Counted from the first letter of the stretch, positions 1 through 30,309 are shown. The stretch is 64,000 bases of DNA from Planctomycetota bacterium (GCA_027493525.1 JAOSKN010000002.1:1271326-1335325); one strand, 5' to 3'. The notes: generated by a model not told the origin, from the letters alone. Numbers and translations: made by a program.

Positions 1-211
1 CGATTGGGGCTGCGCACCACCGTCTGAAGCCGGTGGCAAGCAACGGATAACCGGCACGCGGAATATTAGGGGTTGCCTTCGGCTTCAGCGCGCACGGAGC
101 TTACTGTCGGACGGCACACCACTGCGTGGTGTGGCACCCGGAGGAGCGACGCGGCGAAGGTGGCTGCGGCGCGAGACGGTGGAGCAGGAGATCGGGCGGC
201 AGATCGGGAAC

Positions 212-859
212 ATGGCGTCGAAGGAGGCCCGCGAGCGGCTGCTCCAGGTGGCGATCGCCGCGCTGGAGAGCCTCGACACGCCCGGCGCGAACGCGCATAT
301 CAAGAGCGTCTACGCGGCGAGCAGCACCAAGGCGCTGCTGACGCTCTCGAACCTGTACGACGCGCGGATGCTGCTCGGCGACGCGTACAACCGGCTGACG
401 ACGGTGGTTTGCCACAGCGAGGCGTTCAGCGACCTGGTGAAGGACACGATCGGGAATTACAAGGTCGAGAACGTCGGCGGGTTCACGGTGGTGACGGGGC
501 TGCCGCAGGCGTTCGGGATGCGGATCGTGGTGGTGGACGACGCGAACCTGAAGAGCGATCCGGGCGGCGGCGATTACATGAAGTACCGCACGCTGCTCTT
601 CGGGCCCGGCGCGCTGGGGCTGATCTACCACCAGCAGTTGCGGATCGAGGCGGAGCGGCGGCTGGATTTCGAGGCGCCGTACTGGCGCGTGCTGGCGAAC
701 TTCGATTTCGCGCCGCATCTGTTCGGGATGAAGTGGACGAGCGCGACGGCCAACCCGGACAACACGGCGCTGGGCACGGCGAGCAACTGGGACGAGGCGT
801 ACAACGACCACCGCGAGGTGCTCTGCGCGGAGCTGGTCCACAACGCGACGGCGGCGTGA
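212..859 (+). CDS. hypothetical protein, possibly phage capsid-like structural protein; start uncertain (131 or 212)
   Basis: ORF 131..859 has a protein-like, non-Arg-biased translation. Bases upstream of 212 overlap the intergenic GCACACCACTGCGTGGTGTGGCACC hairpin box, so the ATG at 212 is preferred. It heads a phage-like cluster. Confidence 0.45.
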   Translation: MASKEARERLLQVAIAALESLDTPGANAHIKSVYAASSTKALLTLSNLYDARMLLGDAYNRLTTVVCHSEAFSDLVKDTIGNYKVENVGGFTVVTGLPQAFGMRIVVVDDANLKSDPGGGDYMKYRTLLFGPGALGLIYHQQLRIEAERRLDFEAPYWRVLANFDFAPHLFGMKWTSATANPDNTALGTASNWDEAYNDHREVLCAELVHNATAA

Positions 860-919
860 GCCACGGTTGTCGGTTGTCGGTTGCCGGTTGGGGCGGGGCG
901 CGGGGGCGCTCCGCCCCAT

Positions 920-1366
920 TCAGCCTTCAGCTTTCAGATTACAGCCTTTACCCAGCGGCCACAATTGAAGCTGGATTCGGGAGGCGATTTCGAAGACGCC
1001 GGCGAGGAGTCCGAGCAGGACGACGGCGGCGGCGAGGTCGAAGAGCAGGGGTTGCGCGCGCCAGCCTTCGCGCTGGAAGGAGTAGAGCATCGGCCGGTCG
1101 GGGTCCCAGTCCTTCTCGGGATTCGGGAGTTTTTCGACGTAGGCCTGATTCGAGGGCCAGCCGTAGCCGAGGTAGCGGTAGTCGTGGAAATACTGGGCGT
1201 CGGTGGCGAGCTGGCGGCCGCCGGGCGCCGGCGCGAGGACGATCTCGCCGATTTCACCTCCGATTCTGGGGGTTAAATTCAGCCAGCCGAGCGCGACCGC
1301 GCCCAGCGCGACGGCGATGAGCGTGGCGAGGTGGAGGCGGACGGCGCGCGGGGCGGGCTGGGTCAT
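920..1366 (-). CDS. hypothetical membrane protein
   Basis: The protein-like part of ORF 920..1531 begins MTQPAPRAV and has two hydrophobic segments. The earlier Arg-rich part was excluded. Confidence 0.4.
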   Translation of the reverse strand: MTQPAPRAVRLHLATLIAVALGAVALGWLNLTPRIGGEIGEIVLAPAPGGRQLATDAQYFHDYRYLGYGWPSNQAYVEKLPNPEKDWDPDRPMLYSFQREGWRAQPLLFDLAAAVVLLGLLAGVFEIASRIQLQLWPLGKGCNLKAEG

Positions 1367-1524
1367 GCGCCAGGTCCGCCGACGTTCTTCACGGGCAGGG
1401 CGTGGGTCATCGGTCGCTCCTTTATAAGGAAGGCACGGCGACGAAAGCCAGCGTAACCGAAGGGCCGGGGCGGGCAAGGGGACGCGCGGAACGGGCAGGC
1501 GGATGGCCGGAGGACAAAGAACGC

Positions 1525-1932
1525 ATGGCACTCACGGCGGAACAGACGACGCAGATCTTCGAGATGCTGGGGATCCCGGAGGGCGGGAACGGGGCGGTGC
1601 TCTCGAGCGTCGCGACGCTCTTCGGGCCGGCTTACGAGAGTTACGAGATGAGCGGCTTCGTGGATCTGGTCAACGCGCGGCTGGCGGGGTTGAGCGCGAG
1701 CCAGGAGGCGCGGGTCGGCGAGCTGCTGGCGCGCTGGTCGGCGATCGGCGCGACGAGCCCGCTGACGGTCGCGGCCGAGGGCGCGGCGCGCGGCACGCTG
1801 GCGGACCATCCTGCGGAGCGGGCGCATCTGCGGCTCGCGCTGGCGAACGTGATCGGGATCGCGGTGAGCAGCGGCGGGTTCGCGCGGGAGGCGTGGACGG
1901 CGGGAGGCGGCGGGGCGCGGGTGGCGAGGTGA
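1525..1932 (+). CDS. hypothetical protein (phage-like module)
   Basis: The translation turns protein-like from MALTAEQTTQIF onward; the upstream part of the ORF is Arg-rich junk. Confidence 0.5.
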   Translation: MALTAEQTTQIFEMLGIPEGGNGAVLSSVATLFGPAYESYEMSGFVDLVNARLAGLSASQEARVGELLARWSAIGATSPLTVAAEGAARGTLADHPAERAHLRLALANVIGIAVSSGGFAREAWTAGGGGARVAR

Positions 1933-2044
1933 GGCGAGTGAATTAAAACGCAAAATGCGCGGGTATTCCATCCTGGCTTGTGCGTTTTACGTTTTCCGCT
2001 TCTGAATGGTCCAAACTTCTACTTCTCTTTATGAGGCCAACTTC

Positions 2045-2410
2045 ATGAGCATCTGGTCATCCGTACGCGACGCGCGGGCGGAGGCGGCTTGCGCGGTCTT
2101 CGCGGAACTCGGGGTGCGCGTGGATCTGATCCACGAAGGCGCGGCGGCGGAGAATCTGGCGGCGTACCTGGAGCGCGCGGGGCAGGCGTTCGAGGCGACG
2201 CTGACTCGGCACGGCGTGGAGGAGACGCGGACGGTGCATCTGCCGCGGCAGGCCGGCTTCGCGGGGGCGGTGCGCCCGGGCGACGTGCTGGTGGCGCCGG
2301 CCGGATCGGGGACGCGCTACGTCGTTCGCGAGATCGAGAGCGACGCGCACGAGGCGGTTTTCCGGCTGCGCGTATCGCGGGCGGCGGCGCCGGTGGGCGT
2401 GGCGGTGTAG
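2045..2410 (+). CDS. hypothetical protein (phage-like module)
   Basis: ORF 2006..2410, with MSIWSSVRDARAEAA the likely start. A low-GC promoter-like stretch lies upstream. Confidence 0.45.
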   Translation: MSIWSSVRDARAEAACAVFAELGVRVDLIHEGAAAENLAAYLERAGQAFEATLTRHGVEETRTVHLPRQAGFAGAVRPGDVLVAPAGSGTRYVVREIESDAHEAVFRLRVSRAAAPVGVAV

Positions 2411-2465
2411 GTGGGTTCCGGGTTCTGAATGGGCACTTTGAGCGAGGTGCGGGACGTTCAAAAGA

Positions 2466-2634
2466 CTAGTGTCCTGTAAGCGAAATCCGTTGCGCGTTTT
2501 GGGGCGCTTTTGACCGTGCTCTTCGTTGCGCTTCGAGCGTCGTATCTTCTCGATACGGCTATTCTTCGCGCGCCTCGATCACGGCCAAAATCCCTCCCAA
2601 ACCGCATCAACGTATTTCACTTACAGAACACTAG
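2466..2634. mobile_element. MITE-like element (same family, imperfect inverted ends)
   Basis: CTAGTGTCCTGTAAGCGAAAT at the left end and ATTTCACTTACAGAACACTAG at the right. The core carries an 11-bp sub-repeat pair, TTTTGACCGTG and CACGGCCAAAA. Confidence 0.6.
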
Positions 2635-2781
2635 AACGCAGAACAAAAAGCGTAAGGCATGGTTTTGCTTGAATCGCGCGGCTGCGAATGATTGTCCGGA
2701 CTGTTGCGTTCTACGTTTCACGTTTCACGCTTTGCATTTCACGACTCCGCGGTGCTTCAAATGTGCTGGAGATTTTTTCCA

Positions 2782-3396
2782 ATGCCCGCAACCAGTCTGA
2801 TCGGCAAGACGCGCGAACGCTTGAAGGCATTGGCCGAAGGCGTGAGCGGCGGGGGCCTGACGCTGGAGGCTTCGCGCGTGCGGCTCGGCTACGACCGCAT
2901 GCTCGAAACGGGCTCGTTCTTCGCGAGCCTGCTCGAGGACGGCCCGTACCTGAGCGTGGGGAGCGCGTCGCTGGAGTACGCCTCGCAGGCGGAGTACGGG
3001 CCGGCGGAGGTGCGCGCGCTCCTGTACGCGGGCTTCGCGCGCGGGGCGGACGACGATTTCACGGCGGTCGACGATCTGCTGGAGGCGCTGCGCGTGGCGT
3101 GGAACGCGCCGGCGTCGTACGGCGAGGGCGAGGCGGCGCCGATCCGGATCGGCTGGGAGGCCTGGCGGACGGAGACGCGGACCGACCCGGGAGTGATCGT
3201 GGTGCCGCTGCGGGTGCAGTTCCCCGATCCCCCGGCGGAGTTCCGGGCGGGCCGCAACGGCGCGCGCAACCGGCTCGCCGCGCTCGCGCGGGCGCGCGCG
3301 CCTCGAACGAGGTTGACGCATTGGGTGCGGTATTTCGTCCACAAATCGCGCTTCGAAAAGCTGGCGGAGTTCAGCCGCGCGTGGCTGGGCGGGTGA
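2782..3396 (+). CDS. hypothetical protein (phage-like module)
   Basis: The ORF becomes protein-like from MPATSLIGKTRERLKA onward. The upstream part is a MITE copy. Confidence 0.5.
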   Translation: MPATSLIGKTRERLKALAEGVSGGGLTLEASRVRLGYDRMLETGSFFASLLEDGPYLSVGSASLEYASQAEYGPAEVRALLYAGFARGADDDFTAVDDLLEALRVAWNAPASYGEGEAAPIRIGWEAWRTETRTDPGVIVVPLRVQFPDPPAEFRAGRNGARNRLAALARARAPRTRLTHWVRYFVHKSRFEKLAEFSRAWLGG

Positions 3397-3410
3397 CCTG
3401 TGATCTGTGA

Positions 3411-3650
3411 TCTGTGATCTGTGAACTGTGATCTGTGACCTGTGGTCTGTGAACTGTGATCTGTGATCTGTGATCTGTGATCTGTGATCTGTGAACTGTG
3501 AACTGTGAACTGTGATCTGTGATCTGTGATCGTAATCAGTAATCAGTGATCAGTGATCTGTAATCTGTGGTCTGTGAACTGTGATCAGAATACAGAATAC
3601 AGAATACAGATTACAGATTACAGATTACAGGCATCCGAAAGGCGGACTCT
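3411..3650. repeat. tandem heptamer array (CTGTGAT / CTGTGAA / CTGTAAT) followed by inverted (CAGAATA / CAGATTA)n
   Basis: Direct 7-bp periodicity is visible, and the two halves are reverse complements, so the region can fold as a long hairpin. Confidence 0.9.
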
Positions 3651-4043
3651 ATGGGCGCGACCGGGAAGGCGTTCCGAATCGAGTCGGTGGCGCACGGGGA
3701 GACGGTCCTGAGTGGGCCGCTCGAGGTGCGGCTGCGGGAGCGGATCGGATGGACGCCGCTGGCGGCGGGCGAACGCGGCGGCGTGCCGGGCTGGGTGGCG
3801 CGGCGCGAGGGGTACGAGGCGGAGGTGCTCGCCACGGATCTGGCCGACGCGCTGGCCGCGGGCGCCAAGGCGACGCTGACGATCGTGCTGAAGGACGCGG
3901 GCGGCGGGAACGTGACGGTCTCGATCGCGGGAATGCGGCGCGGGCCGGTGGAGTGGCTGATGGAGCGCGGGCCGTTCACGCGGCGGATGGTCTTCCGGCA
4001 CGAGGGCGAGGCCGGCGCGGGGACGCTTACGGTGAGCGCATGA
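3651..4043 (+). CDS. hypothetical protein (possible tail component)
   Basis: A clean 130-aa ORF that begins immediately after the heptamer arrays. Confidence 0.5.
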   Translation: MGATGKAFRIESVAHGETVLSGPLEVRLRERIGWTPLAAGERGGVPGWVARREGYEAEVLATDLADALAAGAKATLTIVLKDAGGGNVTVSIAGMRRGPVEWLMERGPFTRRMVFRHEGEAGAGTLTVSA

Positions 4044-4083
4044 GCGCGCGCCGGCGCGGGGTTCCGAAGAGAGAGGAGCGGAG

Positions 4084-4347
4084 ATGAACGAGCGGAGGCC
4101 CACGACGGCGGCCGAGCGGGCGCTGGCGGCGCTGGCGGAGTTGTTCGCCGCTCCGGCGTCGGGCGAAGCCGAGGCGCGGAGCGAACTCGCGCTGCAGGCG
4201 GGGGAAGAGCGCGAGGCCGAGCCGGCCGGGGCGCGGCGCGCGGCGCGGCCGGAGGGCGCGACCTTCGTGAGCCTGGAGCGGCGGCGGCAGGAGGAGTGGC
4301 TCTTCGGGCGGCGCCGGCGGAGACGGAGCGGGTGGCGGGTGGACTGA
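4084..4347 (+). CDS. hypothetical small protein
   Basis: An 87-aa ORF 41 nt after the preceding gene, with an Ala/Glu-rich N-terminus and an Arg-rich tail. Confidence 0.3.
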   Translation: MNERRPTTAAERALAALAELFAAPASGEAEARSELALQAGEEREAEPAGARRAARPEGATFVSLERRRQEEWLFGRRRRRRSGWRVD

Positions 4348-4535
4348 GCGGGCGGAGCGGCCGGTTGCTGGTTGCCAGTTGCCAGTTGCCGGTTGCCGGT
4401 TGCCGGTTGCTAGGGAGCGCGCTTCGCGCGGATTTTTTCAGGCGCCGCCCCTGCCCCTCCTCAGGGAGGAGGGGAAATCGCGCAAGAACCGGCATGCAAT
4501 TTAGGGCATACCCCTTTGATTCCAGGTGCGAAAGT

Positions 4536-4660
4536 TTAAGCGTTCACTGTTCACTGTTCACTGTTCACTGTTCACTGTTCGCTGTTCACTGTTCACTGTT
4601 CACTGTTCGCTGTTCACTGTTCACTGTTCACTGTTCACTGTTCACTGTTCCTCGGAGCAA
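4536..4660. repeat. (CACTGTT)n, about 17 units
   Basis: Seen in sequence. Confidence 0.9.
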
Positions 4661-4663
4661 CCC

Positions 4664-5083
4664 ATGGCCGATTGGCTGGTTGGCGGCATTACGTACCTCG
4701 ATCCGGTTGGAATTGCAGACGCCGGCGGGCTGGTCTCGGGGCGGTACTGGCTTGGCGAGGTGCGGATTTCACACCCCGAGATCGAGGAACAATTCTACGG
4801 CTTTCCGGGGGTGGATGGGGTGGGCGTCAAGACGTTCGGGTTCCGCGGGCGGCGGCTACGGGGCGGCGTGGCGTATCTGGCGGCCTCCACCTTCGACCTG
4901 CGCGCGGCGCTCGATGCCGACCGCGCCGCGCTGCGCGGGGTCTCCTTTTCGTGCCAGGCGCCGGACGGGTCGGCGTACGCGAACTGCCGGTTGGAGGCGC
5001 TGCCCGACGGCGCGGTGCTGCTGGACGCGGGCGGGCTGTTCGCGATGCGGACGGAGTTGAGGCTCTTTCAGGCGCGGGAGTGA
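4664..5083 (+). CDS. hypothetical protein
   Basis: The translation is protein-like from MADWLVGGITYLDP onward. The upstream ORF portion is the translated (CACTGTT)n array, which is an artefact. Confidence 0.5.
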   Translation: MADWLVGGITYLDPVGIADAGGLVSGRYWLGEVRISHPEIEEQFYGFPGVDGVGVKTFGFRGRRLRGGVAYLAASTFDLRAALDADRAALRGVSFSCQAPDGSAYANCRLEALPDGAVLLDAGGLFAMRTELRLFQARE

Positions 5084-5564
5084 TGCTGTTGTCGGTTGCT
5101 GGTTGCTGGTTGCTGGTTGCTAGGGGGCGCGTTTCGCGCGGATTCATTAGGGCACCGCCCCTGCCCCTCCTCGGGGAGGAGGGGAAACGCATAAGACAGG
5201 CGGGGGCGGGTATCCGTTGCTTGCCACCACCTTCAGGTGGTGGATCGCGGCTCCCATTTATTGCTTATTCCGCCGGCTTAAGCCGGCGGAATGAGGAGCT
5301 GTTGGGGCTGGGCACCACCGGCTGAAGCCGGTGGCAAGCAACGGATAAGGGAGGCGGCACGGCGGGCGAGCAGGATGCTCGCGGACGGGAGAACGAAAAG
5401 ACGCGCGGGCGGGACGCCCACGCGAGCCGGCGAGGACGCCGGCGCTACGGGCGGGGCACGGGGCGGCTTCGCCGACCCGTGGCACGGCGGACTGAAGGAA
5501 ACGCACCTTAGCAACCGGCAACCGACAACAAACAACCAGCAACCCGATCTGCGGAGGCGAGGCG

Positions 5565-7424
5565 ATGGCTCAGTACGTTCCGAATTCCGACGACGCGCAA
5601 TTCGATCAATATGCGGGCCAGGAATTCGAGGATCCGCTGGCCTACGCGAGCGCGCAGCCCAAGCGGATCGACGCAAAATTCTTCCTCAAGCCGGTCCAGG
5701 ATGAATTGCTGCGGCTGATCGAGCTGGCCTTGGAAGGGCTGGCGGCGCTCCCGGTGCGAAATGGGACCGGAAGTCTGCTGGAAAAAGGCGCGCTGGTCCG
5801 CGTCGCCGGCTTCGACTCGGGCGCGTCGCGGTGGCTGGTGGAACCGGCCGACGCGAACGACGCTTCGCGGCCCGCGCAGTTCGTCCTGGACGAGGCGCTG
5901 GCCGACGAGGCCGAGGGCGTGGCGTACGCGCACCGAACGGTGAGCGGGCTGGACACGAGCGGGACGGCGCCGAACGATCCGGTGTATCTGTCGGCGGAGG
6001 AGGGCGTGTACGGCTTCGCGCCGCCGGAAGGCGCGGCGCGGGCGCAGGAGGTCGGGCGCGTCGCGGCGGTTGGGGCGGAGGGCGCGATCTGGTTCAGCGT
6101 GGGCGGCCTTGCGGCGGGGCGCGCCCCGGGCGGGACCGGCACGCCGGGCGCGCTGGCGCGCTGGAGCGGCGCGGGGGAGCTGGGCGACGCGGCGGTGAGC
6201 GACGACGGGAGCGATTTGACGCTGGCGCCGAGCGGGACGGTGTACGCGGCGGCGGCGCTGGTCCCGGACTCAGGAAACGCGCGGGACCTGGGGAGCGCGG
6301 AGGCGGCCTGGCGCGGCGCGTACCTGGGGGAGGACACCGGGAGCGGCGCGCACTTCGGCGCGGACGCGGACTGGCGCTGGTACTACGACGAGGCGGGGCT
6401 CGACGCGCTGATGCTGGCGGAAAGCGACGTTCCGGCGCTGGCGCTGAAGGGCTCGGACCCCGGGAATTTTAACGCGGTTTCGGACACGAATGGGAACGAC
6501 CTGTACTTCAAGACGCAGGGTGGCGGGGCGCACGCGGGCGGCAACCCGCGCGGCGGGCGGCTGATCTTCGTGACGGGCGCGGCCGGATCCGGCGGGTCGG
6601 GCGCCGAGGGCGACGTGCGTTTTCGAAGGAGCGACGGGAGCTACGAGCTGCGGATCGAGACGCGCAATTCACTGGGGCGCGGCGGCTTCGACGTGACGAC
6701 GGGTTCGCTGCTGGATTTTCGCGTCAACGGGACGATCTGCCTGAGCATCTCGAGCGGCGGATTTCAGGTCGCTTCCAGCAAGGAATTCAGCTTCGGGACG
6801 ATCTCCAACGCGGTGCTGCGGCATGCGGCGATCGGGAGCGACGCGGCGACGTACGAGTTCCAGGTCATCGGGCAGAACGCGTTCGCGGCGGCATCGACGA
6901 ACCGCAACGGCGGGAACGTGGTCGTCACGCCCGGGGCGCACGCGACGTCGGGCGGCGCGGCGGGGCGCCTGGTCGTGCGCGACCCGCACGGTTCGGCGGG
7001 CGTCGACGAGGTTCACGTGCAGCACGACGGGACCGACGCGCGGATCGAGCCGAAGAGCGGGGAACTGCGCGTGGCCGGGAGCGGGCTGCGCGTGGAGAAC
7101 GGCTGCGCGCTGGACGCTCAGACGCCGGCGGCGCTGGACTCGGACGCGAACGATTACGATCCGGGCGCGAGGACGTTCACGCGGCTGAGCGCGAGCGCGG
7201 CGCGGAACGTGACCGGCCTGGCCGGCGGGAGCGACGGGCGGCAATTGTGGGTCGCCAACGCGGGGAATTTCGCGATCGTCTTCAAACACGAGGCTGCCGG
7301 ATCGGCGGCGGCCAATCGCCTGATCGGGATCGGCGGGACCGACGTGACGCTGGCCGCGAACGAGACGGCGATTCTGATCTATGACGGGACGACGCAGCGC
7401 TGGCGGTTCATGGCGAGGACGTAG
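5565..7424 (+). CDS. phage tail fibre-like protein (Gly/Ala/Ser-rich, 619 aa)
   Basis: A long clean ORF with Gly-rich beta-strand-like composition typical of tail fibres or spikes. It sits among phage-like neighbours; the assignment is from composition and context only. Confidence 0.6.
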   Translation: MAQYVPNSDDAQFDQYAGQEFEDPLAYASAQPKRIDAKFFLKPVQDELLRLIELALEGLAALPVRNGTGSLLEKGALVRVAGFDSGASRWLVEPADANDASRPAQFVLDEALADEAEGVAYAHRTVSGLDTSGTAPNDPVYLSAEEGVYGFAPPEGAARAQEVGRVAAVGAEGAIWFSVGGLAAGRAPGGTGTPGALARWSGAGELGDAAVSDDGSDLTLAPSGTVYAAAALVPDSGNARDLGSAEAAWRGAYLGEDTGSGAHFGADADWRWYYDEAGLDALMLAESDVPALALKGSDPGNFNAVSDTNGNDLYFKTQGGGAHAGGNPRGGRLIFVTGAAGSGGSGAEGDVRFRRSDGSYELRIETRNSLGRGGFDVTTGSLLDFRVNGTICLSISSGGFQVASSKEFSFGTISNAVLRHAAIGSDAATYEFQVIGQNAFAAASTNRNGGNVVVTPGAHATSGGAAGRLVVRDPHGSAGVDEVHVQHDGTDARIEPKSGELRVAGSGLRVENGCALDAQTPAALDSDANDYDPGARTFTRLSASAARNVTGLAGGSDGRQLWVANAGNFAIVFKHEAAGSAAANRLIGIGGTDVTLAANETAILIYDGTTQRWRFMART

Positions 7425-7574
7425 GCGGTTGCTGGTTGTCGGTTGTCGGTTGCTGGTTGCTGGTTGCTGGTTGCTGGTTGCTGAGGAGTTTTTCTTCTTG
7501 TACTCATGTCACGTCGAAGGTGGTAATTTTACTGCGTGAAAGGATAACATTTACCGAACCATTAGGCGCATTCC

Positions 7575-7937
7575 ATGGGAAATCGCATTACCTACCGCGA
7601 CCTGGAGGCCTGGAAAAAGGCCATGGATTTCGTGGAGCAGGTCTACCGCCTTTCCGCTCAGTTTCCCGAATCCGAACGTTTCGGCTTGAGCGCACAATTG
7701 CGCCGGTCGGCTCTTTCCATTCCTTCTAATATCGCCGAAGGCCAAGCGCGCGCGACGGTCGCCGACTTCAAGCGCATGCTGTACATCGCCCGCGGTTCAC
7801 TGGCCGAGGCAGAGACCCAATTGTTAATAGCGGTCCGTCTTGAATACATTGGCCGAAATGCCCTGAAGCCCGTTTGGCGCCAGGCACAGACCGTTGGCCG
7901 GCTCCTGAATGGCCTGCTTCGGGCGCTGAAGGACTGA
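7575..7937 (+). CDS. four-helix-bundle protein (TIGR02436 / Avd-like family)
   Basis: A 120-aa protein whose sequence resembles the 23S-rRNA-intervening-sequence / Avd four-helix-bundle family. The gene region has markedly lower GC than its flanks. Confidence 0.7.
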   Translation: MGNRITYRDLEAWKKAMDFVEQVYRLSAQFPESERFGLSAQLRRSALSIPSNIAEGQARATVADFKRMLYIARGSLAEAETQLLIAVRLEYIGRNALKPVWRQAQTVGRLLNGLLRALKD

Positions 7938-8064
7938 AGACGCGCGCGTCTGCTGGTTGCCGGCTGTCGGTTACCGGCTGCTATGAGATTCTCTATTTAC
8001 TGCCCTCACCTCGAAGAAAAAGAAAGCACCTCAGCAACCAGCAACCGGCAGGCAAGGAGCAGCC

Positions 8065-9631
8065 ATGTCGCCAGGCATGCGAACGTCGTCGTTTCCGGGT
8101 TCGGTGGAGGAGGCGCTGCTGGATCTGCGCGTGGAGGTTCCGGAATTCGGGGGCTTCGCGCGGGTGGAATTGAAGGCCGCGCCGGGTTACGGCGCGCGGC
8201 ATTACGCGCTGTACGCCAACGCGCGGCGGGCCGGCACGGTCTGGGTTCCGGAAGGGGAAGCGGCGCGCGCGACGGTTCCGGCGCCGGCGGGGGCGGGGGA
8301 TTTGTCGGTGCACGCGGAGGACCTCGGGGATTGGCCGGGGCACGCGTACGATCCGGCGTTCACGGCGCGGGACGCCGAGTCGGGGGAGGCGCGGCAGTTG
8401 ACGCTGGCCTGGCGCGCGCGGCCGGCGTTCGTTTCGAGGGGTGACGCGCTGGGGCAGTTGACGAACTGGAACCTGGAGGGCGTCAAGCGCTTCAGCAATT
8501 CGGCGGCGGTGGAACGGCGGCCGACGCGGGCGGCGTGGAACGTGGAATTGCGCGACGATTCGGGGACGCGGACGGTGCGGCTTTACGCGGGCGCGGCGGC
8601 GGTGGCGGAAGGCTCGCGCGCGGGGGACGGGACGGTCGTCCTGGGCGCGCTGAACGGCTCGGGCCTGAGCGGGAGCGTGGAGCTGGCCTACGCGGCGGAC
8701 GCCGAGCCGGGCGGGATCGGGCTCGAGGCGCGATTTCCCGCGCGGTACGAGATCCATTACGCGCTGGGGAGCCTTGAATTTCCCCGGGAAGCGGAGGCCG
8801 AATGGAGCGACGACGGGCGCTCCAACGCGTTCCGCTGGACGAGCGGGCCGCTGGAAGCGGGGAAGCTACGCCGCGGCGGCGCGGCCGGTTTCGGACACGG
8901 GGATCGCGAGCGCGGCGGTCATAGCGCAAAGCGTAAACGTGCCGGGCGCGCCGGAGCCGCCGGGGATTCCCGAATACGCGAGCGGCGGCGCGGCGGGCAC
9001 GACGATCCGCTGGGCGGCCTCGCCGACGCCCGGCGCGACGTACCGGATCTACGCCGGCGCGGTGGGCGGCGCGATCGACACCACGACGCCCGTGACGACG
9101 GCCGCGGCGGGGAGCGGGACGCTGGAGGCGGCGCTGCCGGCGGCGGCGGGGTATCCCGGGGTGCGGCGCGTGCTGGTGCGCGCGCTTTCAGGCGGCGCGG
9201 AGGAGCGGAACGGCGCGGTGCTGGAGCTCGAGTACGATTCGAGCGGCGCGGCGGTTCCGGCGCGGCCGAATGCGCCGCGGGTGCGGGAGGTCTCGGTGAG
9301 CGGCGGGCGGACGCTGACGGTGGCAGCGGCGTATGAAGAGGCCGGCGAGCGCGCGGAGCCGGCGACGTGCGCGCTGTATCTGAAGCCGCTGGAGGAGGAA
9401 CTCGATTACGCGAGCCCCTACGCGGGCGCGGCGTGGGGCGCGGAAGTTGCGGGCGCGCGCGAGGCGGCGCTGACGGCGAGCCTGGGCGCGGACGGCTGGT
9501 ATCGGCTGGGCGTGCGCGCGCTGACGGCGGGCGGGACGTCGGACGGCAACACGCGCTGGGAGCGGGTGTACGTTTCGAGCGCGGCGCCGGCGGCGGCGGC
9601 GGGGCTGGAGGCTGCGGCGTCGCGAGGGTGA
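8065..9631 (+). CDS. hypothetical protein with apparent +1 frameshift near 8860-8890 (possible tail or baseplate protein)
   Basis: Frame 1 is protein-like for 8065 to about 8880, and frame 2 is protein-like for about 8860 to 9631. Neither frame is plausible on the other side of the junction. Confidence 0.45.
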
Positions 9632-9907
9632 GGGGGTAATATGGTGGAGCGCTGCGCGCGGATTTTTTCAGCACCGTCCCTGCCCCTCCTCGGGGAGGAG
9701 GGGAGACGGCATAGGGCGATGGAACCTAATTGAAGTAAGGCCGCTTAGCAACCCGTTGAAAAAGGGAGCGGGCCATTAAACGGCGCTTTTGCCCAACCCT
9801 TCGTTGCTCCCTCGTCACAGAGCTTCTCTGGATATGCTCCTCGGTCGCGCCTCGGTCAGGACAAAAATCGCTCGTTTACCGACCGCACCCCCATTTTCAA
9901 CGGGCTG

Positions 9908-10075
9908 CTAGTGTCCTGTAAGAGAAATCCATTGCGCATTTTGGGGTGCTTTTGGCCGTGCTCTTCGTTGCGCTCCGATCAGCGTATCTTCTTGATACGA
10001 TGACTCTTCGCGCGCCTCGATCACGGTCAAAATCCCTCCCAAACCGCATCAACGAATTTCTCTTACAGGACACTA
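9908..10075. mobile_element. MITE-like element, 168 bp, with 21-bp inverted ends CTAGTGTCCTGTAAGAGAAAT
   Basis: The inverted ends at 9908-9928 and 10055-10075 match perfectly. Its core matches repeats near 2490, 9780, 30760 and 62050. Confidence 0.7.
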
Positions 10076-10480
10076 GCGGTCGAGCTTGAGGTCGCGGAGG
10101 CGCCAGCGCCCGTTCTTGGCGGTCTGGTACTGGACGCTGCCCGAATAGACTTTGCCGATGACGTAGCGGTCGGCGCCGCCGAAGAGGCTGTCTACTTCGT
10201 TGACGGCGAAATGCTTGGTGTCGCCGGGCTTGAAGGGCGCTTTTTCGTCTTCCAATTCCACGATATTCACGCTCACCACGTAATGCGGATCGGGGGTCAC
10301 GGCGGTGACGACGTAATCGCCGCGGCCGATCGGTTCGATGTTCAGGAGCTTGGCCTTGAACGGCACGGAGTGCTCCTCAAGGAGCGGGAAGCTGGTGACG
10401 CTCTGCTTGACCTGCATGCGCTTCCCGCCGCCGCAGCCAGCGAGGAGAAGGGCGGCGAGGAGCATCGGGGCGGCGCGCAT
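10073..10480 (-). CDS. lipoprotein, hypothetical
   Basis: The mature part begins MRAAPMLLAALLLAGC, which includes a lipobox. The C-terminal part of the ORF looks like a real protein. Confidence 0.6.
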   Translation of the reverse strand: MRAAPMLLAALLLAGCGGGKRMQVKQSVTSFPLLEEHSVPFKAKLLNIEPIGRGDYVVTAVTPDPHYVVSVNIVELEDEKAPFKPGDTKHFAVNEVDSLFGGADRYVIGKVYSGSVQYQTAKNGRWRLRDLKLDR

Positions 10481-10715
10481 GGGGGCTCCGGGGGTTTGTA
10501 ATCTGTAATCTGTAATCTGTGATCTGTGATCGAAACTACGGTAATCGGTGGGCGGTGCACGGTAAACGGTAGAAATGGGGGGTTGCTGGTTACCGGTTTC
10601 CGGTTGCTGAGGTGCTTTCCTTTCTGGTTCAATTGGCAGGCGACGCATCAGAAGTTCCATGGCGACCGGCAACCGGCAACTGACAACCGGCGTGCGTGAC
10701 GAAAGCGGGGGCGCG

Positions 10716-12827
10716 ATGCCGGCATCGGCGGTGGTGAAGCTGCCTACGGGCGCGGATTTTCGGGCGGCGGTGTACGGGGTTTCGTTCGCGGGGTCGGCGG
10801 ACCCGGAAGGCGGGGCGCGGCGCGCGCCGGGGTCGCGCTTCGCGTTCGCGTCGGAGGTGCTCCTGCAGAGCGGGGCGCGGCCCTCGCACGCGCTGGTGGA
10901 GCTGCCGCTGGGGGCGTGGTCGGAGCGCGCGCCGAGGGTGGCGGCGGCGGAAGGCGGGCCGCTGGCGGGCGTAAAGCTGGGCACGCGCGCGAAGGCGCAC
11001 GTGCTGAGCGGGAAGCGGGCGTACACGCTGCTGGTGGGGAGCGTGGCGGCGATCCAGCACGACCTGGGCGCGGACGCGGCGACGCTGACGGTGCTGGACG
11101 ACCGCTGGCTGCTGGAGGGCGTGCCGGTGGCGGGCCAATTCATCCGCGATCCGGCGCGGGAATTGACGCTATACCGAGAGCGGGGGCCGTGCCGTTTCAA
11201 TCCGGACGGGCGGCCGAATTGCCTGGACACGGCGGCGGGCCCGCTCTTCGCGCCGTACCCGGGCTACGGCCGCGCGGACGGGGACGCCGAGCCGGCGCCG
11301 GGCGCGGCGACGGCGGCGGCGCGGCCGTGGCGGCACGCGGACATCGCCGAGTACCTGGCGGCGACGCTGGCGAGCGAGGCGTACGCGGCGGAGACGGCGG
11401 CGTTCCCGCACTTCGCGCGCGCGGACGCTTCGCGGGTGCTCGTGCCCGCGGGCCTGGGGCTGGCGCTGCTGGGGGACGCGGAGCACGAGCCGGAGGACGC
11501 GCGGGGCGCGGGCGGGTTCACGGCGGCCGACCGGGAGGGCGCGGGGCGCGCGCCGGACCTGACGCTGGAGGGGCTGGACCTGCTGGCGGCGCTGAACCGG
11601 GTCGTGGAGAGCGCGGGGGCCTACGCATTGTGGTGCGCGCCGCTGGAGGATTCGTGGCGTTCGGTCCTGCGGATCGTGCCGGCGCGGCACCTCGACGGGG
11701 CCGGGGGCACGGCGCTGGCGCGGCCGGCGGGCGGGGCGCTGGGGGCGCACGGCGGGGCGCTGGGGGCGCGGGCGGGGACGCTGGAGGAGGACGGGACGGA
11801 GCTGTACACGCGCGTGGTGGTGGCGGGGGACGCGGCGGAGCTGGAGCGGCGGCTGGCGTTCGAACCGGAGGGCGGGGGCGGGCTGGCGGCGGCGTGGAGC
11901 GCGGAGGACGAGGAGGCGTTCCGCGCGTACGTGCGCGACCATCCGGAGCATCCGGGCTCGGCCGAGGCGTTCCTGGAGGCGGCGTGGCGCTACCCGCGGG
12001 TCTTCGCGGCCTATCACGTCGACGCGGAATTCGACTGGCTGGAGGGGACGAAATACGCGGGCTTCCCGCGGGCGACGCCGCATCCGCCGATCCTGCCGCG
12101 GCTGCTCTCGGAATTCACGGAGGAAATCGAGGGTCAAATCCGGCGGGTATTCCCGGCCGCGACGACGGTGGAACTGGCCGACGACGAGGGCGAATTCCGG
12201 GCGCGCACGCAACTGGACGGGCTGGAGGTGGACGACGACGGGACGCTGTGGCTGCCGGGACTGCGCGAGGCGGGGCTGTCCGATCCGCAATCGGGGACCT
12301 GGAAGGGGGATCTGGCGGACGCCGGGACGCTGGAGGCGCGCGCGCTGCGGGTGACGCTGGCGCTGCGGCTGGACGCGCGGCTGACGGCGGCGCTGGGGCT
12401 GCACGGCTCGGGCGAAGGAGCGGGCGCCGATCCGAACGCCGAGGCCGGGGCGCTCGCCGAGGGCCTCGCGCGGACCTACCGGGTCGATGCGGAGGGCGCG
12501 TACCGGGAGCATCTGCGCAGGGAGAGTTGGCCGGTTCCGGAGAGCGTGGAGGGGGCGGAGGCGGCGCCGGATCGGGCGGCGGAGGGCGCGGAGCTGCGCG
12601 GCGACGGGGCGCGCGCGCGGGCGCACGCGCAGCGGCGGCTGGCGGAGGTGGCGCGGGCGCGGCGGAGCGGGCGGCTGATCTTCCCCGCGCCGGCGCTGTG
12701 GACGCCGGGGACGGCGATCGAGGAGCTGGTGAACGCGGGCGGGACGGGGCGCTATCCGGTGCGGGGCGTGGTGGCGCGGGTGCGGCATTCGTACGCGCGG
12801 CAGGAGACGGAGGTGGAGCTGGCTTGA
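10716..12827 (+). CDS. large hypothetical protein (phage-like module); start uncertain
   Basis: A 2.1-kb clean ORF. The overlapping long ORFs on other frames and on the minus strand are Arg/Gly-rich artefacts. Confidence 0.55.
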   Translation: MPASAVVKLPTGADFRAAVYGVSFAGSADPEGGARRAPGSRFAFASEVLLQSGARPSHALVELPLGAWSERAPRVAAAEGGPLAGVKLGTRAKAHVLSGKRAYTLLVGSVAAIQHDLGADAATLTVLDDRWLLEGVPVAGQFIRDPARELTLYRERGPCRFNPDGRPNCLDTAAGPLFAPYPGYGRADGDAEPAPGAATAAARPWRHADIAEYLAATLASEAYAAETAAFPHFARADASRVLVPAGLGLALLGDAEHEPEDARGAGGFTAADREGAGRAPDLTLEGLDLLAALNRVVESAGAYALWCAPLEDSWRSVLRIVPARHLDGAGGTALARPAGGALGAHGGALGARAGTLEEDGTELYTRVVVAGDAAELERRLAFEPEGGGGLAAAWSAEDEEAFRAYVRDHPEHPGSAEAFLEAAWRYPRVFAAYHVDAEFDWLEGTKYAGFPRATPHPPILPRLLSEFTEEIEGQIRRVFPAATTVELADDEGEFRARTQLDGLEVDDDGTLWLPGLREAGLSDPQSGTWKGDLADAGTLEARALRVTLALRLDARLTAALGLHGSGEGAGADPNAEAGALAEGLARTYRVDAEGAYREHLRRESWPVPESVEGAEAAPDRAAEGAELRGDGARARAHAQRRLAEVARARRSGRLIFPAPALWTPGTAIEELVNAGGTGRYPVRGVVARVRHSYARQETEVELA

Positions 12828-12851
12828 GGGGGGAAGCTCCAGGGCAAAAAA

Positions 12852-12935
12852 GACAAGTAAACAGTAAACAGTAAACAGTAAACAGTAATCAGTAATCAGT
12901 AATCAGTGAACAGTGAACAGTGAACAGTGAACAAT
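12852..12935. repeat. (AACAGTA)n (AATCAGT)n (GAACAGT)n heptamer arrays; reverse complement of CACTGTT
   Basis: Seen in sequence. Confidence 0.9.
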
Positions 12936-13335
12936 TCGGTGTGGCTCGTTTGCTGTTTTCATTTTGCTGTTTGTTTGAGATTTGGTTCTTGTCGTTTGCC
13001 GTTTTGAGTCCTGAAGGGTCGAATGAGAATAGCCCAGCGATTCATCGCTGGGAAAATGGTTGGGTTCGCTGGGCGCGGGAAGCATCAAATCAAAAGAACC
13101 AAAACCCAAACAAATTTCAAACGGCAAGAACAAAATTCCAAACAATCGGCGAACAGATCGGCGCTCGAACTCATGCCGCCCCTGCGGGGCTCAAACGAGT
13201 CAAGGGCCGAGTACCAGGGGCTTACGCCCTGGCTATAGCATGGCGGCCCCGCGGGCCTGAATGGCGGTATGGGAATTCATGCCGCGATTGTTAAGTTAAG
13301 GAAATGTGACTGCAACAGCCGGTGACCGGCCCCGG

Positions 13336-13648
13336 CACACCACTGGGTGGTGTGGCACCTAAGACTCACGACGCGGCGGAGGGGACGCTGGGCGCGGGCG
13401 AGTGGCGACCGGGAACAGAGAACCGGGAACCGGTGACCGAAAACCGTTGTTCGCGCGGGCGGCACACCACTGCGTGGTGTGGCACCCAAAACTCACGACG
13501 CGGCGGAGGGGACGCTGGGCGCGGGCGAGTGGCGACCGGGAACAGAGAACCGGGAACCGGTGACCGAAAACCGTTGTTCGCGCGGGCGGCACACCACTGC
13601 GTGGTGTGGCACCCAAAACTCACGACGCGGCGGAGGGGATGGTTGGCG
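13336..13648. repeat. 117-bp tandem repeat, about 2.7 copies, each copy containing the hairpin box GCACACCACTGCGTGGTGTGGCACC
   Basis: Copies at 13336-13452, 13453-13569, and a partial copy at 13570-13648. The box also occurs at 108-135. Confidence 0.85.
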
Positions 13649-13715
13649 CGGGCGAGCGCAGATGATAGCGCGATATTTAAGCTCATGTTTTTGAGAAAAA
13701 CTTGGATATGAAATA

Positions 13716-13938
13716 GCTACTGTTCACTGTTCACTGTTCACTGTTCACTGTTCACTGTTCACTGTTCACTGTTCACTGTTCACTGTTCACTGTTCACTGT
13801 TCACTGTTCACTGTTCACTGTTCACTGTTCACTGTTCACTGTTCACTGTTCACTGTTCACTGTTCACTGTTCACTGTTCACTGTTCACTGTTCACTGTTC
13901 ACCGTTCACCGTTCACCGTTCACTGTTCACCGTTCACC
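13716..13938. repeat. (CACTGTT)n, about 30 units, with CACCGTT variants
   Basis: Seen in sequence. Confidence 0.9.
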
Positions 13939-14140
13939 GTTCATTGGCTACCTGGCACACGGTATCCGGCAACCGGCAACCAAGCTGAGGCAGACTCTTG
14001 CATGAATCTCGACCGGACCGGCATCGATCTTTCCATCCTGCGCCGGCTGGCGCTGGCGGAGCGGGCTCGGGCGCGGGAACGGGGCCCGGCGGGGCGGACG
14101 CGGGTGCGTTCGGCGGGCGCGTTGGGGGCAGCCGTACGAC

Positions 14141-14604
14141 GTGCTCGAACTGGATTTCTTCGCCGCCGAGCCGCTTTCGGCGCAGCCGGGCTCGGGCGAG
14201 ACGGCCTTCGCGTACTCGCCGGAGCTCGTCTTCGACCCGCCGTATGGCTTCGCGCCGTACACGCTTTTGTGGGCCGAGCCGCAGCCGCTCGAACTGGACG
14301 ACGCGGCCCTGGGGGACTCTTCCGGGCTTACTTCGAACTGCGCTTCGACGACGAGCGGGTCGAGAACCTGAACGTCTTCGAGGTCTACGCGCCCGGGGAC
14401 GGGAGCGTCGCGGCGATCCCGCCGTTCATCGACAGCGCACAGGAGGCCGGGGAAGGGCGGCGGCTGGTGGGCGCGCGGCTGGCGCTTTCGGCGGACGGGC
14501 CGGGGACGGCGACGGCCACGCTGTATCCGGGCGTCTCGTGGCTGCTTTTCTTCCGTTCGCGGGAGGGTCAATACCGGCATGAGGAATTGACGATTGACGA
14601 TTGA
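14141..14604 (+). CDS. hypothetical protein with apparent frameshift near 14320
   Basis: Frame 2 is protein-like for 14141 to about 14320, then frame 1 is protein-like to 14604. Confidence 0.35.
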
Positions 14605-14684
14605 CGATTGCGGAATGCGGAATGCGGAATGCGGAATGCGGAATGCGGAATGCGGAATGCGGAATGCGGAATGCGGTTGGATGG
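14596..14684. repeat. (GAATGCG)n, about 11 units
   Basis: Seen in sequence. Confidence 0.9.
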
Positions 14685-15956: not shown

Positions 15957-16195
15957 CCGGGGGTTGGGGAAAGTATGAAGTATGAAGTATGAAGTATGAA
16001 GAAAGAGAAAGTATGAAGTATGAAATATGAAATATGAAATATGAAGTAAGAGGCTTGAGGCTTGAGGCTTGAGGCTTGAGGCTTGAGGCTTGAGGCTTGA
16101 GGCTTGAGGCTTGAGGCTTGGCAAGAGTGCTTTGGATTTCGTACTTCTTCTTTTTCATACTTCATACTTCATACTTCATACTTCATATTTCATCC
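15957..16195. repeat. nested heptamer arrays: (GTATGAA)n, then (GCTTGAG)n, then inverted (TTCATAC)n
   Basis: Seen in sequence. The outer arrays are reverse complements of each other. Confidence 0.9.
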
Positions 16196-16411: not shown

Positions 16412-16903
16412 ATGGCCAACCCGATCGTCGTTTTCACCACGTCGCAGGGGAGCTTTGAGGTGGAACTGTACGCGGACAAGACGCCGGCGACGGTGCAGAA
16501 CTTCGTCCAGTACGTGAGCGACAAGCACTACGACGGGACGATCTTCCATCGCGTGATCGACGGGTTCATGATCCAGGGCGGCGGTTTCGGGGCGGACGGG
16601 AAGCAGAAGCCGACGCGCGCGCCGATCAAGAACGAGTCGGGGAAGGGCCCGAAGAACTGCAACTACGGGATCGCGATGGCGCGGACGAGCGACCTGAACA
16701 GCGCGACGGCGCAATTCTACATCAACGTGGCCGACAACGCGTTCCTCGACGACGGCCAATACTGCGCCTTCGGGAAGGTGACGCAGGGGACGCAGACGAT
16801 CGACAAGATCAAGAAGGTCGCGGTGGACAAGCCGGGGCGGCTGAGCGAGGCGCAGCCGAAGACGCCGGTGGTGATCGAGTCGGCGACCGTCAAACCGCAG
16901 TAA
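16412..16903 (+). CDS. ppiB: peptidyl-prolyl cis-trans isomerase, cyclophilin type
   Basis: Cyclophilin hallmark motifs are present: FHRVIDGFMIQGGGF and NCNYGIAMAR. Confidence 0.9.
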   Translation: MANPIVVFTTSQGSFEVELYADKTPATVQNFVQYVSDKHYDGTIFHRVIDGFMIQGGGFGADGKQKPTRAPIKNESGKGPKNCNYGIAMARTSDLNSATAQFYINVADNAFLDDGQYCAFGKVTQGTQTIDKIKKVAVDKPGRLSEAQPKTPVVIESATVKPQ

Positions 16904-17102: not shown

Positions 17103-17981
17103 ATGCCCATACTCAAAGACCTGGCCGTCGTGCTGCGGACGTACGAGGTCTCGAACACGAGCCTCGTGCTGGTGCTCTTGGGCCGGCGGCTGGGTCAGGT
17201 GCGGGTGCTGGCGAAGGGCGCGCGGCGCTTCCACAAAAAAGGATTCGAGGGCGGCTTCGACCTGCTGGCGCAGGGCGAGGTGGTGGCGTATCCGCGGCGC
17301 GGGGAGGCGCTGTGGATATTGAAGGAGTGGGACGAGCGATCGCGCGCGGCGGGGCTGGGACGCGGGGCGCGGGAGCTGTGGGCGGCCAGTTACCTGTGCG
17401 AACTGGCGGAGGCGCTGACGCGCGAAGGCGCGGGGAGTTCGGGGGAGGACGGCGCGGGCGGGGACGAGGCGCCGGCGCGGCTGCACGGGTTGCTCGGCCG
17501 GGCCGCGCGGGCGCTGGAGTCCGGGGCATCGCCCGGCGCGACGCTGCTCTGGTTCACGCTCCACGCGCTGGAGTCGGCGGGGCTGCTGCCGGAGCTGGGG
17601 GCGTGTTCGCGCTGCGGGAAGGAGCTGGCGCGGAGCCGGCGGCCGGCGCGGCTGAACGCGGAGGGGCTGGTCTGCGAGGGGTGCCTGGCGGGGGAGGCGC
17701 TGGAGCGGCTGCCGGTGGGGGCGGCGCCGCCGGGGACGGTGGCGGAACTGGCGCGGCTGCTGGAGGCCGCGCCGGGGACGCGGCGCGCCGGGGCGGTGTG
17801 GCTGACGCCGGAGCTGCTCGGGGCGCTGCGGCATATCCAGCGCACGGGGAAGCCGGTGAAGCTGAGCGCGGGCGCGGCGCGGGCCGGGGCGCGGGCGCTG
17901 CTGGCGCTGGTCCACAACGCGCTGGAGCGCGACCTGCGCACGCTGCGGGCGGCGGCGAAGATGGTGGTGGAGATGAAGTGA
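17103..17981 (+). CDS. recO: DNA repair protein RecO
   Basis: An N-terminal OB-fold-like region (VVLRTYEVSNTSLVLVLLGRRLGQVRVLAKGARR) plus a CxxC...CxxC zinc finger. Confidence 0.85.
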   Translation: MPILKDLAVVLRTYEVSNTSLVLVLLGRRLGQVRVLAKGARRFHKKGFEGGFDLLAQGEVVAYPRRGEALWILKEWDERSRAAGLGRGARELWAASYLCELAEALTREGAGSSGEDGAGGDEAPARLHGLLGRAARALESGASPGATLLWFTLHALESAGLLPELGACSRCGKELARSRRPARLNAEGLVCEGCLAGEALERLPVGAAPPGTVAELARLLEAAPGTRRAGAVWLTPELLGALRHIQRTGKPVKLSAGAARAGARALLALVHNALERDLRTLRAAAKMVVEMK

Positions 17982-17984: not shown

Positions 17985-18250
17985 CGTCATTGGTCATTGG
18001 TCATTGGTCATTGGTCATTGGTCATTGGTCATTGGTCATTGATGCGTGAAGAAACTAATTCCTGGACGATTTCAAGACATATTTAATGAATATAATGAAC
18101 TATTTAATGATTAATGATTAATGATTAATGATTAATGATTAATGATTAATGATTAATGATTAATGATTAATGATTAATGCTCAATGCTCAATGCTCAATG
18201 CTCAATGCTCAATGCTCAATGCTCAATGCTCAATGCTCAATGCTCAATGC
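17985..18250. repeat. (GGTCATT)n, (TAATGAT)n and (CTCAATG)n heptamer arrays
   Basis: Seen in sequence. Confidence 0.9.
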
Positions 18251-27685: not shown

Positions 27686-27885
27686 GGCGGGATGGTTGCC
27701 GGTTGCCGGTTGTCGGTTGCTGGTTGCTGGTTGCCGGTTGCTGAGGTGCTTTATTTTTTGTTTGGTGGTGCAGGCAACACAAAAAGAGTTCCAAAGCAAC
27801 CGGCAACCGGCAACCGAGAACCGGCAACCGCTGAGCGGCACGGGGCGGCTTCGCTGACCCGTGGCACGGCGGGGTGGGCGGGATG
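27686..27885. repeat. composite GTTGCYG/GAACCGG repeat element with CGGCACGGGGCGGCTTCGCTGACCCGTGGCACGG box
   Basis: Seen in sequence. Confidence 0.8.
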
Positions 27886-29007: not shown

Positions 29008-29092
29008 TGGGAAGCTCCTTTACCTGTCCGGGTTCGGGTGACAAGGGGGCGGTTGTATAGAGTTGCGCGGAGGGAGGCAACTGAAGTTCCGG

Positions 29093-29262
29093 GTGGCGGT
29101 TGCCGGTTGCCGGTTGCTGGTTGCCGGTTGCTGAGGTGCGTTCTTTTTTGTTGGAGGTGCAGGCAACAAGAAAAGAGTTCCAAAGCAACCGCGAACCGGC
29201 AACCGAGAACCGGGAACCGGCGGTCGGCACGGGGCAGCTTCGCTGACCCGTGGCACGCGTGC
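29093..29262. repeat. composite GTTGCYG/GAACCGG repeat element with conserved box
   Basis: Seen in sequence. Confidence 0.8.
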
Positions 29263-29346: not shown

Positions 29347-29434
29347 TGGAGGAGGACAGAGGACTCGAACCCCACTCCCGAAGGAGCGATCCGTTTTCGA
29401 GACGGTCCCGGCACGCCTGTCCGGTTTATCCTCC
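29347..29434 (-). tRNA. tRNA-Ser(CGA)
   Basis: Manual cloverleaf: GGAGGAT/GTCCTCC acceptor stem, long variable arm, CCA encoded. Confidence 0.8.
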
Positions 29435-30300: not shown

Positions 30301-30309
30301 GCTGCGGAT

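Follow-up and report, generated by a model that had tools for sequence, protein, structure and literature searches.

A probable cryptic phage remnant and a separately inserted four-helix-bundle gene in a Planctomycetota chromosome

The first part (positions 1-14604) of a 64,000-nucleotide stretch of DNA from a Planctomycetota bacterium (GCA_027493525.1, JAOSKN010000002.1:1271326-1335325; the whole 64-kb stretch analysed is called the window below) is, in our judgement, likely to be a cryptic, decaying prophage-like remnant that comprises the right-hand two-thirds of a phage-derived element. In sister Planctomycetota genomes the element is a complete gene cluster, running from an HTH_17 gene to a gene for a 192-aa protein. 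In the window it is broken inside the gene for the major capsid protein (MCP), at codon 134; terminase, portal, scaffold and the MCP N-terminus are not in the window; a tail gene at 8065-9631 is frameshifted; and the spacers have been invaded by intergenic repeats of the host (7-nt arrays, hairpins and a small RNA) and by a stand-alone four-helix-bundle (4HB) gene.

A preliminary description of positions 1-12827 had taken the region for a phage-like structural gene module and had hinted at a link to a diversity-generating retroelement (DGR). The first view is borne out by orthologous loci with genes for terminase, portal, scaffold and a full-length MCP, and by viral contigs that share the tail-type block; the second is not, and the suspected DGR-bearing phage module becomes a truncated phage remnant with an unrelated inserted 4HB gene. 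For the window this is mostly tidying up: its element is real but fairly ordinary, and was misread in one respect, the DGR. The analysis also brings out a coherent family of small elements of phage origin, as yet unannotated, in the Planctomycetota (for which very few viruses are known), whose capsid protein is far more conserved than its terminase, and a large uncharacterised family of 722-aa proteins (437 clusters) that is tied, together with its neighbours, to a tail-type block on viral contigs.

The broken capsid gene and the head genes of relatives

The MCP gene fragment (158-859, plus strand; open reading frame (ORF) 131-859) corresponds to codons 134-366 of a full-length orthologue. The preliminary description had called a gene of this module capsid-like, and the gene does match Pfam PF20036 (Gp13-like; 87.3 bits against a gathering cutoff of 26.4, E = 1.6e-24) and PHROG 247 (major head protein; 2.5e-29), but as a fragment only: the PF20036 match is confined to profile positions 98-307 of 313, the N-terminal third (1-97) being missing, and the alignment to the 366-aa MCP of one related locus (L001) opens at residue 134 of the latter, equivalent to window nt 158, with 91% identity. 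Repeat DNA (1-157) stands in place of the 5' third of the gene, as judged from its repeat matches: nt 4-50 recur at 5302-5348, and nt 112-139 equal the hairpin core (GGCACACCACTGCGTGGTGTGGCACCC, found also at 113-139) of a tandem repeat whose 127-nt unit is present in 2.6 copies at 13333-13713. Because this core lies exactly at the capsid truncation point, the arrangement hints at a deletion in the capsid gene via repeat-mediated recombination.

Relatives show what an unbroken locus looks like. A scan of GTDB species genomes revealed eight related loci with MCPs 71-92% identical, and each of these with sufficient upstream DNA has a full MCP of 339-370 aa; in 22 more metagenome loci the MCP is full-length wherever upstream DNA suffices, and the same holds for a scaffold gene before it. 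The head genes that precede the MCP gene in relatives are a terminase (Terminase_6N), a portal (PHROG 145, 1.9e-41) and a scaffold (PHROG 206). No tblastn match to the TerL, portal or scaffold of L001 was obtained anywhere in the 64-kb window. Likewise, neither 52 portal homologues nor the five top clusters include a portal of the source genome; the same protein database does contain the 722-aa and 4HB proteins of the source genome. With an MCP that lacks the N-terminal third, and with no packaging genes, this locus could not form a capsid, and we infer that the head genes have truly been lost from the source genome. In search of the DNA upstream of the window, exact matches to three window proteins and to the protein P0001 were looked for, with no result. 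A pattern scan of JGI metagenomes gave no match to the junction at the capsid break; the metagenome scan with the C-terminal MCP fragment gave the 22 relatives mentioned above, none of them of the same species (best identity 89%).

The second lesion lies in the tail region. The frames 8065-9336 and 8774-9631 together form the orthologue (8065-9631, plus strand) of one 516-524-aa ORF, which is single in three planctomycete relatives (L001, L002 and L009) and on four viral contigs (L096-L099); the window copy carries a +1 shift in a G/A run (GGGG/AA) near 8862-8875.

Both lesions might instead be artefacts of long-read assembly of a metagenome-assembled genome (MAG), with the real element intact: a mis-join at a repeat would account for the MCP break, and a homopolymer error for the frameshift. 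The source contig, at 2.6 Mb, suggests long reads; next to the junction at nt 113-139 lies a hairpin repeat with three further occurrences at 13.3-13.7 kb; and the frameshift falls within the GGGG/AA run. However, in the full MCP genes of relatives, codon 134 has no such repeat from which a mis-join could start, the protein database holds no portal from the source genome, and the expansion of repeats and the insertion of the 4HB gene are independent signs of decay. We consider an assembly artefact improbable.

Several observations nevertheless weigh against a decaying remnant. An insertion could separate the window from head genes that lie further upstream; annotated as pseudogenes, these would have no entry in protein databases. 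The frameshift, being in a homopolymer, could still be an assembly error. All other module ORFs are open, and the C-terminal MCP fragment, at 91% identity to L001, has a ratio of nonsynonymous to synonymous divergence (dN/dS) of 0.18; therefore, either inactivation was recent or some genes are still selected. Finally, most module proteins are placed by sequence and gene order rather than by fold (the AlphaFold2 model of the 722-aa protein, built from an 8-sequence alignment, has a mean confidence, pLDDT, of 35). As for the open frames, they are weak evidence of function, since long frames persist by chance at 67% GC. The dN/dS ratio was also tried as a test of pseudogenisation and set aside as indecisive: all values are less than 1, but dS approaches saturation and two of the gene pairs are mis-framed.

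The tail-type block and the element family

Downstream of the MCP fragment, the order of genes up to that of the 722-aa protein is syntenic with L001, L002 and L009. The preliminary description had seen a same-strand run without housekeeping homologues, which holds for the plus-strand genes of 158-12827 but not for two minus-strand genes inside the run (920-1366 and 10073-10480); it had also set the limits of the module at 1-12827, whereas the conserved last gene (14002-14604) lies beyond them and the module proper extends to 14604. ORFs were chosen under the guidance of third-codon-position GC content (GC3), and the feature starts of several genes were trimmed by homology.

That 4664-12827 is a true tail-end module of a virion is best supported by the conservation of this block on viral contigs. 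Its order (139 aa, fibre, 516 aa, 722 aa) recurs on contigs from IMG/VR: L096-L099 (27-41 kb) carry genes for the fibre N-terminus, for a protein of ~516 aa and for one of ~700 aa with the order kept, at ~4000-12200 on each contig, with some gaps from contig to contig (only L096 and L097 gave a match to the 139-aa gene, and L097 gave none to the fibre). The head genes of these contigs, which come from other, lower-GC hosts, are unrelated to the planctomycete head genes.

The first gene of the block encodes the 139-aa protein (4664-5083, plus strand; ORF 4526-5083), and the second a 619-aa tail-fibre-like protein (5565-7424, plus strand). That the latter looks like a tail fibre, as had been noted from the sequence, is confirmed by a match to Pfam PF25692 (Phage_depo_C; 31.2 bits against a cutoff of 25, 3e-7) and by 39-42% identity of residues 520-616 to annotated phage tail fibre proteins. 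Its N-terminal anchor region (approximately residues 2-220/330) is conserved, and its C-terminus, a Phage_depo_C beta-sandwich domain, is exchangeable. The frameshifted 516-aa gene follows, and the block closes, on the viral contigs too, with the gene of the 722-aa protein (10716-12827, plus strand; ORF from 10659, conserved start M20). This protein is 100% identical to M5U26_16880, an NCBI protein from a Planctomycetota MAG. Its 437 family clusters were defined at 50% identity, and 220 of them have E values of at most 1e-30; no Pfam match was found for 56 members, and PHROGs gave two marginal single-member matches. No believable match to the 722-aa, 619-aa or 516-aa proteins was found among PDB sequences, and none by tblastn to the 722-aa and 516-aa families in GenBank phages. 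A short-tailed (podovirus-like) architecture is our guess, because there is no tape-measure-like gene.

Between the MCP fragment and the tail-type block lie mostly small genes. A moron-like gene for a small membrane protein (920-1366, minus strand), conserved in L001 and L002, has ~52% identity to the L001 copy. It is followed by a plus-strand gene at 1525-1932 (ORF 1402-1932), which occurs after the MCP gene in all relatives checked, with 44-73% identity; no family match was found for its product, which is probably a head-completion or connector protein. The remaining genes of this stretch, all on the plus strand, are those at 2006-2410 (with a sub-threshold Phage_attach match, 20.1 bits against a cutoff of 26), 2782-3396 (ORF 2692-3396; conserved family-wide with 27-69% identity), 3651-4043 (48% identity to the L001 copy) and 4084-4347, the conservation of which is limited to the C-terminus. 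Within the tail-type block, a lipoprotein gene (10073-10480, minus strand) is conserved in L001 and L002, with 58% identity to the L001 copy. The last conserved module gene (14002-14604, plus strand), of the 192-aa family, has 41% identity to that of another relative (L013, 12319-12897); repeats fill the 1.2 kb between this gene and the 722-aa gene.

Every related locus comes from Planctomycetota MAGs or from metagenomes. As drawn from seven of them (L009-L011, L013, L094, L114 and L119), the usual element begins after a host gene with an HTH_17 gene, ORFs of ~140 aa and ~90 aa and sometimes a 540-558-aa protein; continues in the middle with TerL, portal, scaffold, MCP, the gene corresponding to 1402-1932 and further small genes; and ends on the right with the 139-aa, fibre, 516-aa, 722-aa and then 192-aa genes before another host gene. 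Intact elements have a total length of ~17-25 kb. Three head-only members (L006, L094 and L095) end after the small genes that follow the MCP gene. The flanking host genes differ in every genome examined, so that there is no conserved chromosomal position: the window has cyclophilin peptidyl-prolyl isomerase (PPIase) and RecO genes, elsewhere the flanks are ORF6N...DnaE, trmE/pfkB or ispH, and the window differs even from L001.

General Pfam scans of the window ORFs detected no integrase family. The Pfam annotation of five left and three right element ends (flanks covered: L009-L011, L013, L094 and L095), in which many small ORFs are unannotated, contained no integrase, replication or lysis family. 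An HTH_17 gene and a head-only layout occur in L006, L094 and L095; no integrase or primase family was detected. One of these three, L095, represents a further case of decay in the element family, independent of that in the window: within its stretch 820-2700 the terminase gene is in two pieces of 199 and 175 aa, and an IS200-type Y1 transposase gene (2188-2700) lies just 3' of both pieces and 5' of the portal gene.

Across the family (L001, L005, L006, L010 and others), identity is 72-92% for the MCP, 48-58% for the portal and 36-43% for the terminase, with synonymous divergence near saturation for all three genes; the conservation of the MCP reverses the ranking usual in phages. With the MCP conserved and dS near saturation, this pattern points to purifying selection rather than recent transfer. 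All 52 portal homologues are from Planctomycetota or from metagenome contigs; no close relatives of the MCP were found in IMG/VR, where the best relative on a viral contig has 34-36% portal identity. In the literature library searched, no description of a gene transfer agent (GTA) from Planctomycetes was found among the titles and abstracts listed.

Intact relatives, we infer, make particles. That these relatives constitute an undescribed, Planctomycetota-restricted and integrase-less family of particle-gene clusters, 17-25 kb in size and kept by selection as a GTA- or satellite-like system instead of as ordinary temperate phages, of which the window holds a decayed copy, strikes us as rather unlikely. 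Such a family would run from HTH_17 through TerL, portal, scaffold and a hyper-conserved MCP to connectors, and a podovirus-like tail block might or might not follow. A domesticated GTA-like cluster or a capsid-forming satellite, with the window genes still in use and head genes supplied from elsewhere, appears unlikely. In its favour are the small size of intact relatives, their place between host genes, their HTH_17 start and annotated ends devoid of integrase, replication and lysis families; the head-only members; the restriction of portal homologues to Planctomycetota and metagenomes, together with a close family devoid of IMG/VR members; the contrast between MCP and terminase at near-saturated dS, with its sign of purifying selection; and the host-like GC3 and the host-type heptamer repeats inside the elements of several genomes. 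On the other hand, chromosomal flanks vary between genomes, gene content is mosaic as in phages, the tail block occurs on viral contigs of 27-41 kb, and small unannotated ORFs could hide lysogeny or replication functions; the broken MCP counts against function in the window itself. A decaying prophage-like remnant remains our preferred reading of the window.

The four-helix-bundle gene and its repeat-rich surroundings

Between the fibre gene and the frameshifted 516-aa gene lies a stand-alone gene (7575-7937, plus strand) of the TIGR02436/PF05635 family, a four-helix bundle according to both its hidden Markov model (HMM) matches and its predicted fold. It scores 120.1 bits against TIGR02436 (cutoff 24) and 127.8 bits against PF05635 (cutoff 33.8; 2.4e-37), the latter over profile positions 1-106 of 106, and its AlphaFold2 model (pLDDT 96.4) has four helices. 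Membership of this superfamily is thus as the preliminary description had it, but the product is not a DGR-type Avd protein: its scores are below the cutoffs both for the DGR-Avd equivalog NF033474 (29.2 bits; cutoff 80) and for PF22296 bAvd (31.5 bits; cutoff 40). Foldseek, applied to the 4HB model, agrees on the four-helix bundle but names as nearest structure not Avd but Xcc0516 (2GSC; TM score 0.92, root-mean-square deviation 0.6, 51% identity), followed by 2RLD (TM 0.80) and the Avd protein of BPP-1 (4DWL; TM 0.77, 13% identity). A profile of 81 family sequences did not reach 4DWL at E <= 0.01.

Could the module nevertheless be a prophage tail module with a DGR, of which the reverse transcriptase (RT) and the template repeat (TR) lie just outside the window? 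The 4HB gene does stand beside a fibre gene, with an Avd-type fold and a match to PHROG 3206 ('Avd protein of DGR') at 8.5e-10, and PF05635 and Avd proteins are members of a homologous superfamily (PMC10053308). Yet none of the other parts was found within the 64 kb. No RVT family was detected in any substantial ORF scanned, and no IGxxxSQ...YxDD motif in the six-frame ORFs of at least 50 aa. A permissive blastn search of 1-13000 against the window returned no coding-region pair of TR and variable repeat (VR) with at least 78% identity or an A-biased mismatch spectrum; neither the fibre 3' end nor any other part of a module gene has a repeat in the window that is at least 78% identical or shows A-biased mismatches. 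The statement that the window has neither RT nor template repeat stands on profile, motif and repeat searches, and the hinted DGR link is not supported. In addition, the C-terminus of the fibre is Phage_depo_C, not a C-type-lectin or Ig variable-repeat scaffold; the 4HB gene is missing from orthologous modules; and two homologues sit tightly between NurA and HerA genes (L014, 3001-3462) and between OppB and OppC genes (L015, 3001-3411). A DGR is barely credible here.

Because no RT, TR or VR was found in the window, the gene fails the Avd models, it is absent from orthologous spacers and homologues occur in unrelated operons, we conclude that the 4HB gene is not a DGR component; it is a separate insertion into a repeat-rich spacer, specific to the source genome. 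Separate acquisition had been suspected from base composition, which the preliminary description called strikingly AT-rich. The GC content of the gene is indeed lower than that of its neighbours (0.587 against 0.70-0.77; 0.553 for the enclosing low-GC island), but the gene is not truly AT-rich; the acquisition itself is upheld by the absence of the gene from the fibre-516 spacer of L001, L002 and L009, the three relatives with a comparable spacer. The low-GC island has a left (GGTTGCT)n arm (7427-7492) and a right (AGCAACC)n arm (8023-8063) that is 78% complementary to the left one.

The family at large has more than 4190 homologues of the window gene. A multicopy mobile 4HB element was considered and rejected, there being one copy in the window and the nearest homologue being 64% identical. 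One other element (L118) has a 57%-identical homologue (3551-3892, minus strand) at another position and on the other strand; a DGR was ruled out there as well, no RT-like ORF being nearby (the sole large ORF near the homologue had no RT-like match in the PDB). These two occurrences in ~350 kb of loci look like background density. The settings of the homologues suggest that the TIGR02436 family spreads as small intergenic insertions. The lesson is that a TIGR02436 gene beside a fibre gene should be taken for a DGR only when an RT and a TR/VR pair accompany it.

The spacers around these genes are filled with repeats. Tandemly repeated 7-nt units of many kinds form 26 arrays, all of them intergenic and all within the first 30 kb; examples are those at 3393-3630, 4542-4650, 13719-13943, 14609-14676, 16050-16120, 18104-18253, 27694-27830 and 29089-29219. 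One swollen spacer (3393-3630) holds GTGATCT and CAGAATA arrays, and the spacer at 4360-4650 GCCGGTT and GTTCACT arrays. Arrays are often paired in inverted orientation and then fold into long hairpins, two of which have z values of -8.4 and -6.6. Other heptamers with the same intergenic habit occur in related Planctomycetota loci (L003-L006 and L010). The arrays are reminiscent of the short tandemly repeated repetitive (STRR) sequences of cyanobacteria and of the TAACTGA repeats of Beggiatoaceae (PMC4679880); our literature search found no report linking heptanucleotide repeats with Planctomycetes. The repeat-filled spacer after the 722-aa gene (12856-13943) contains heptamer arrays, the 127-nt tandem repeat and, on the minus strand at 13007-13052, an Acido-Lenti-1 RNA. 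The last scores 49.6 bits on Rfam RF01687 (gathering score 37); its motif takes its name from other phyla and here occurs in a member of the Planctomycetota.

The surrounding chromosome and comparison with known systems

With 67% GC and housekeeping genes 3' of the phage-derived region, the window is bacterial chromosome, and the codon GC3 of the module genes equals that of the host genes. Downstream of the module come genes for the cyclophilin PPIase (16412-16903) and RecO (17103-17981), followed by glycosyltransferase, IS66 transposase, AnmK, K+ channel and other housekeeping genes. The IS66-family transposase gene (20197-21600, minus strand; DDE_Tnp_IS66, 1.4e-30) lies within a patch of lower GC. 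An array of 31 tRNA genes for nearly all amino acids (29347-36806, minus strand), ~15 kb 3' of the phage remnant, is split by two protein genes, one for an HNH endonuclease (29447-30022) and one for an SPFH/Band 7 protein (31347-32819). A gene for a DUF6600 protein (58005-59981, minus strand) contains an 87-nt unit three times in tandem (58292-58551, 97% identity), and further internal duplications occur in an HbpS-like gene (28023-28784) and at 43949-44605.

The 4HB gene is best compared with the TIGR02436/PF05635 proteins (the 23S rRNA intervening-sequence protein family; Xcc0516, 2GSC), with which it shares a full-length HMM match, the fold and the condition of a stand-alone gene; unlike intervening-sequence proteins, it is not encoded within an rRNA gene but in a heptamer spacer with inverted arms. 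To the Avd protein of BPP-1 (4DWL) it is akin in fold (TM 0.77), a distant kinship within the superfamily, and unlike in having 13% identity, failing the DGR-Avd HMM and having no RT, TR or VR nearby in the window.

As a family, the elements differ from GTAs of the RcGTA type in that their position is not conserved and that the window copy is broken. They differ from phage-inducible chromosomal islands (PICIs) in that the defining integrase and primase were not found in the elements and that members of the window type carry a tail block. They resemble both RcGTA-type GTAs and capsid-forming PICIs (cf-PICIs) in being small clusters of packaging, head and some tail genes devoid of recognisable replication or integration functions, in their host-like codon usage and in having head genes under strong purifying selection; with phage satellites they share a left-end AlpA-like HTH gene.

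The window element itself compares most directly with cryptic prophages of tailed phages with an SPP1-type (Gp13-like, HK97-fold) capsid. It departs from these in that no integrase was seen even in intact relatives, in the 17-25 kb size of the elements, in tail-region proteins that mostly have no relatives in Pfam, PHROG or the PDB, and in its abundant host heptamer repeats; from cultured SPP1-type phages it is set apart by an MCP identity of only ~25%. It shares with such prophages a one-strand, head-to-tail gene order; an MCP in PF20036 and PHROG 247, preceded in relatives by a T4-type terminase N-domain and by PHROG 145 and PHROG 206 proteins; a swappable fibre tip of the receptor-binding or depolymerase type; moron-like genes on the opposite strand; and, in the window, decay by truncation, frameshift and insertions.

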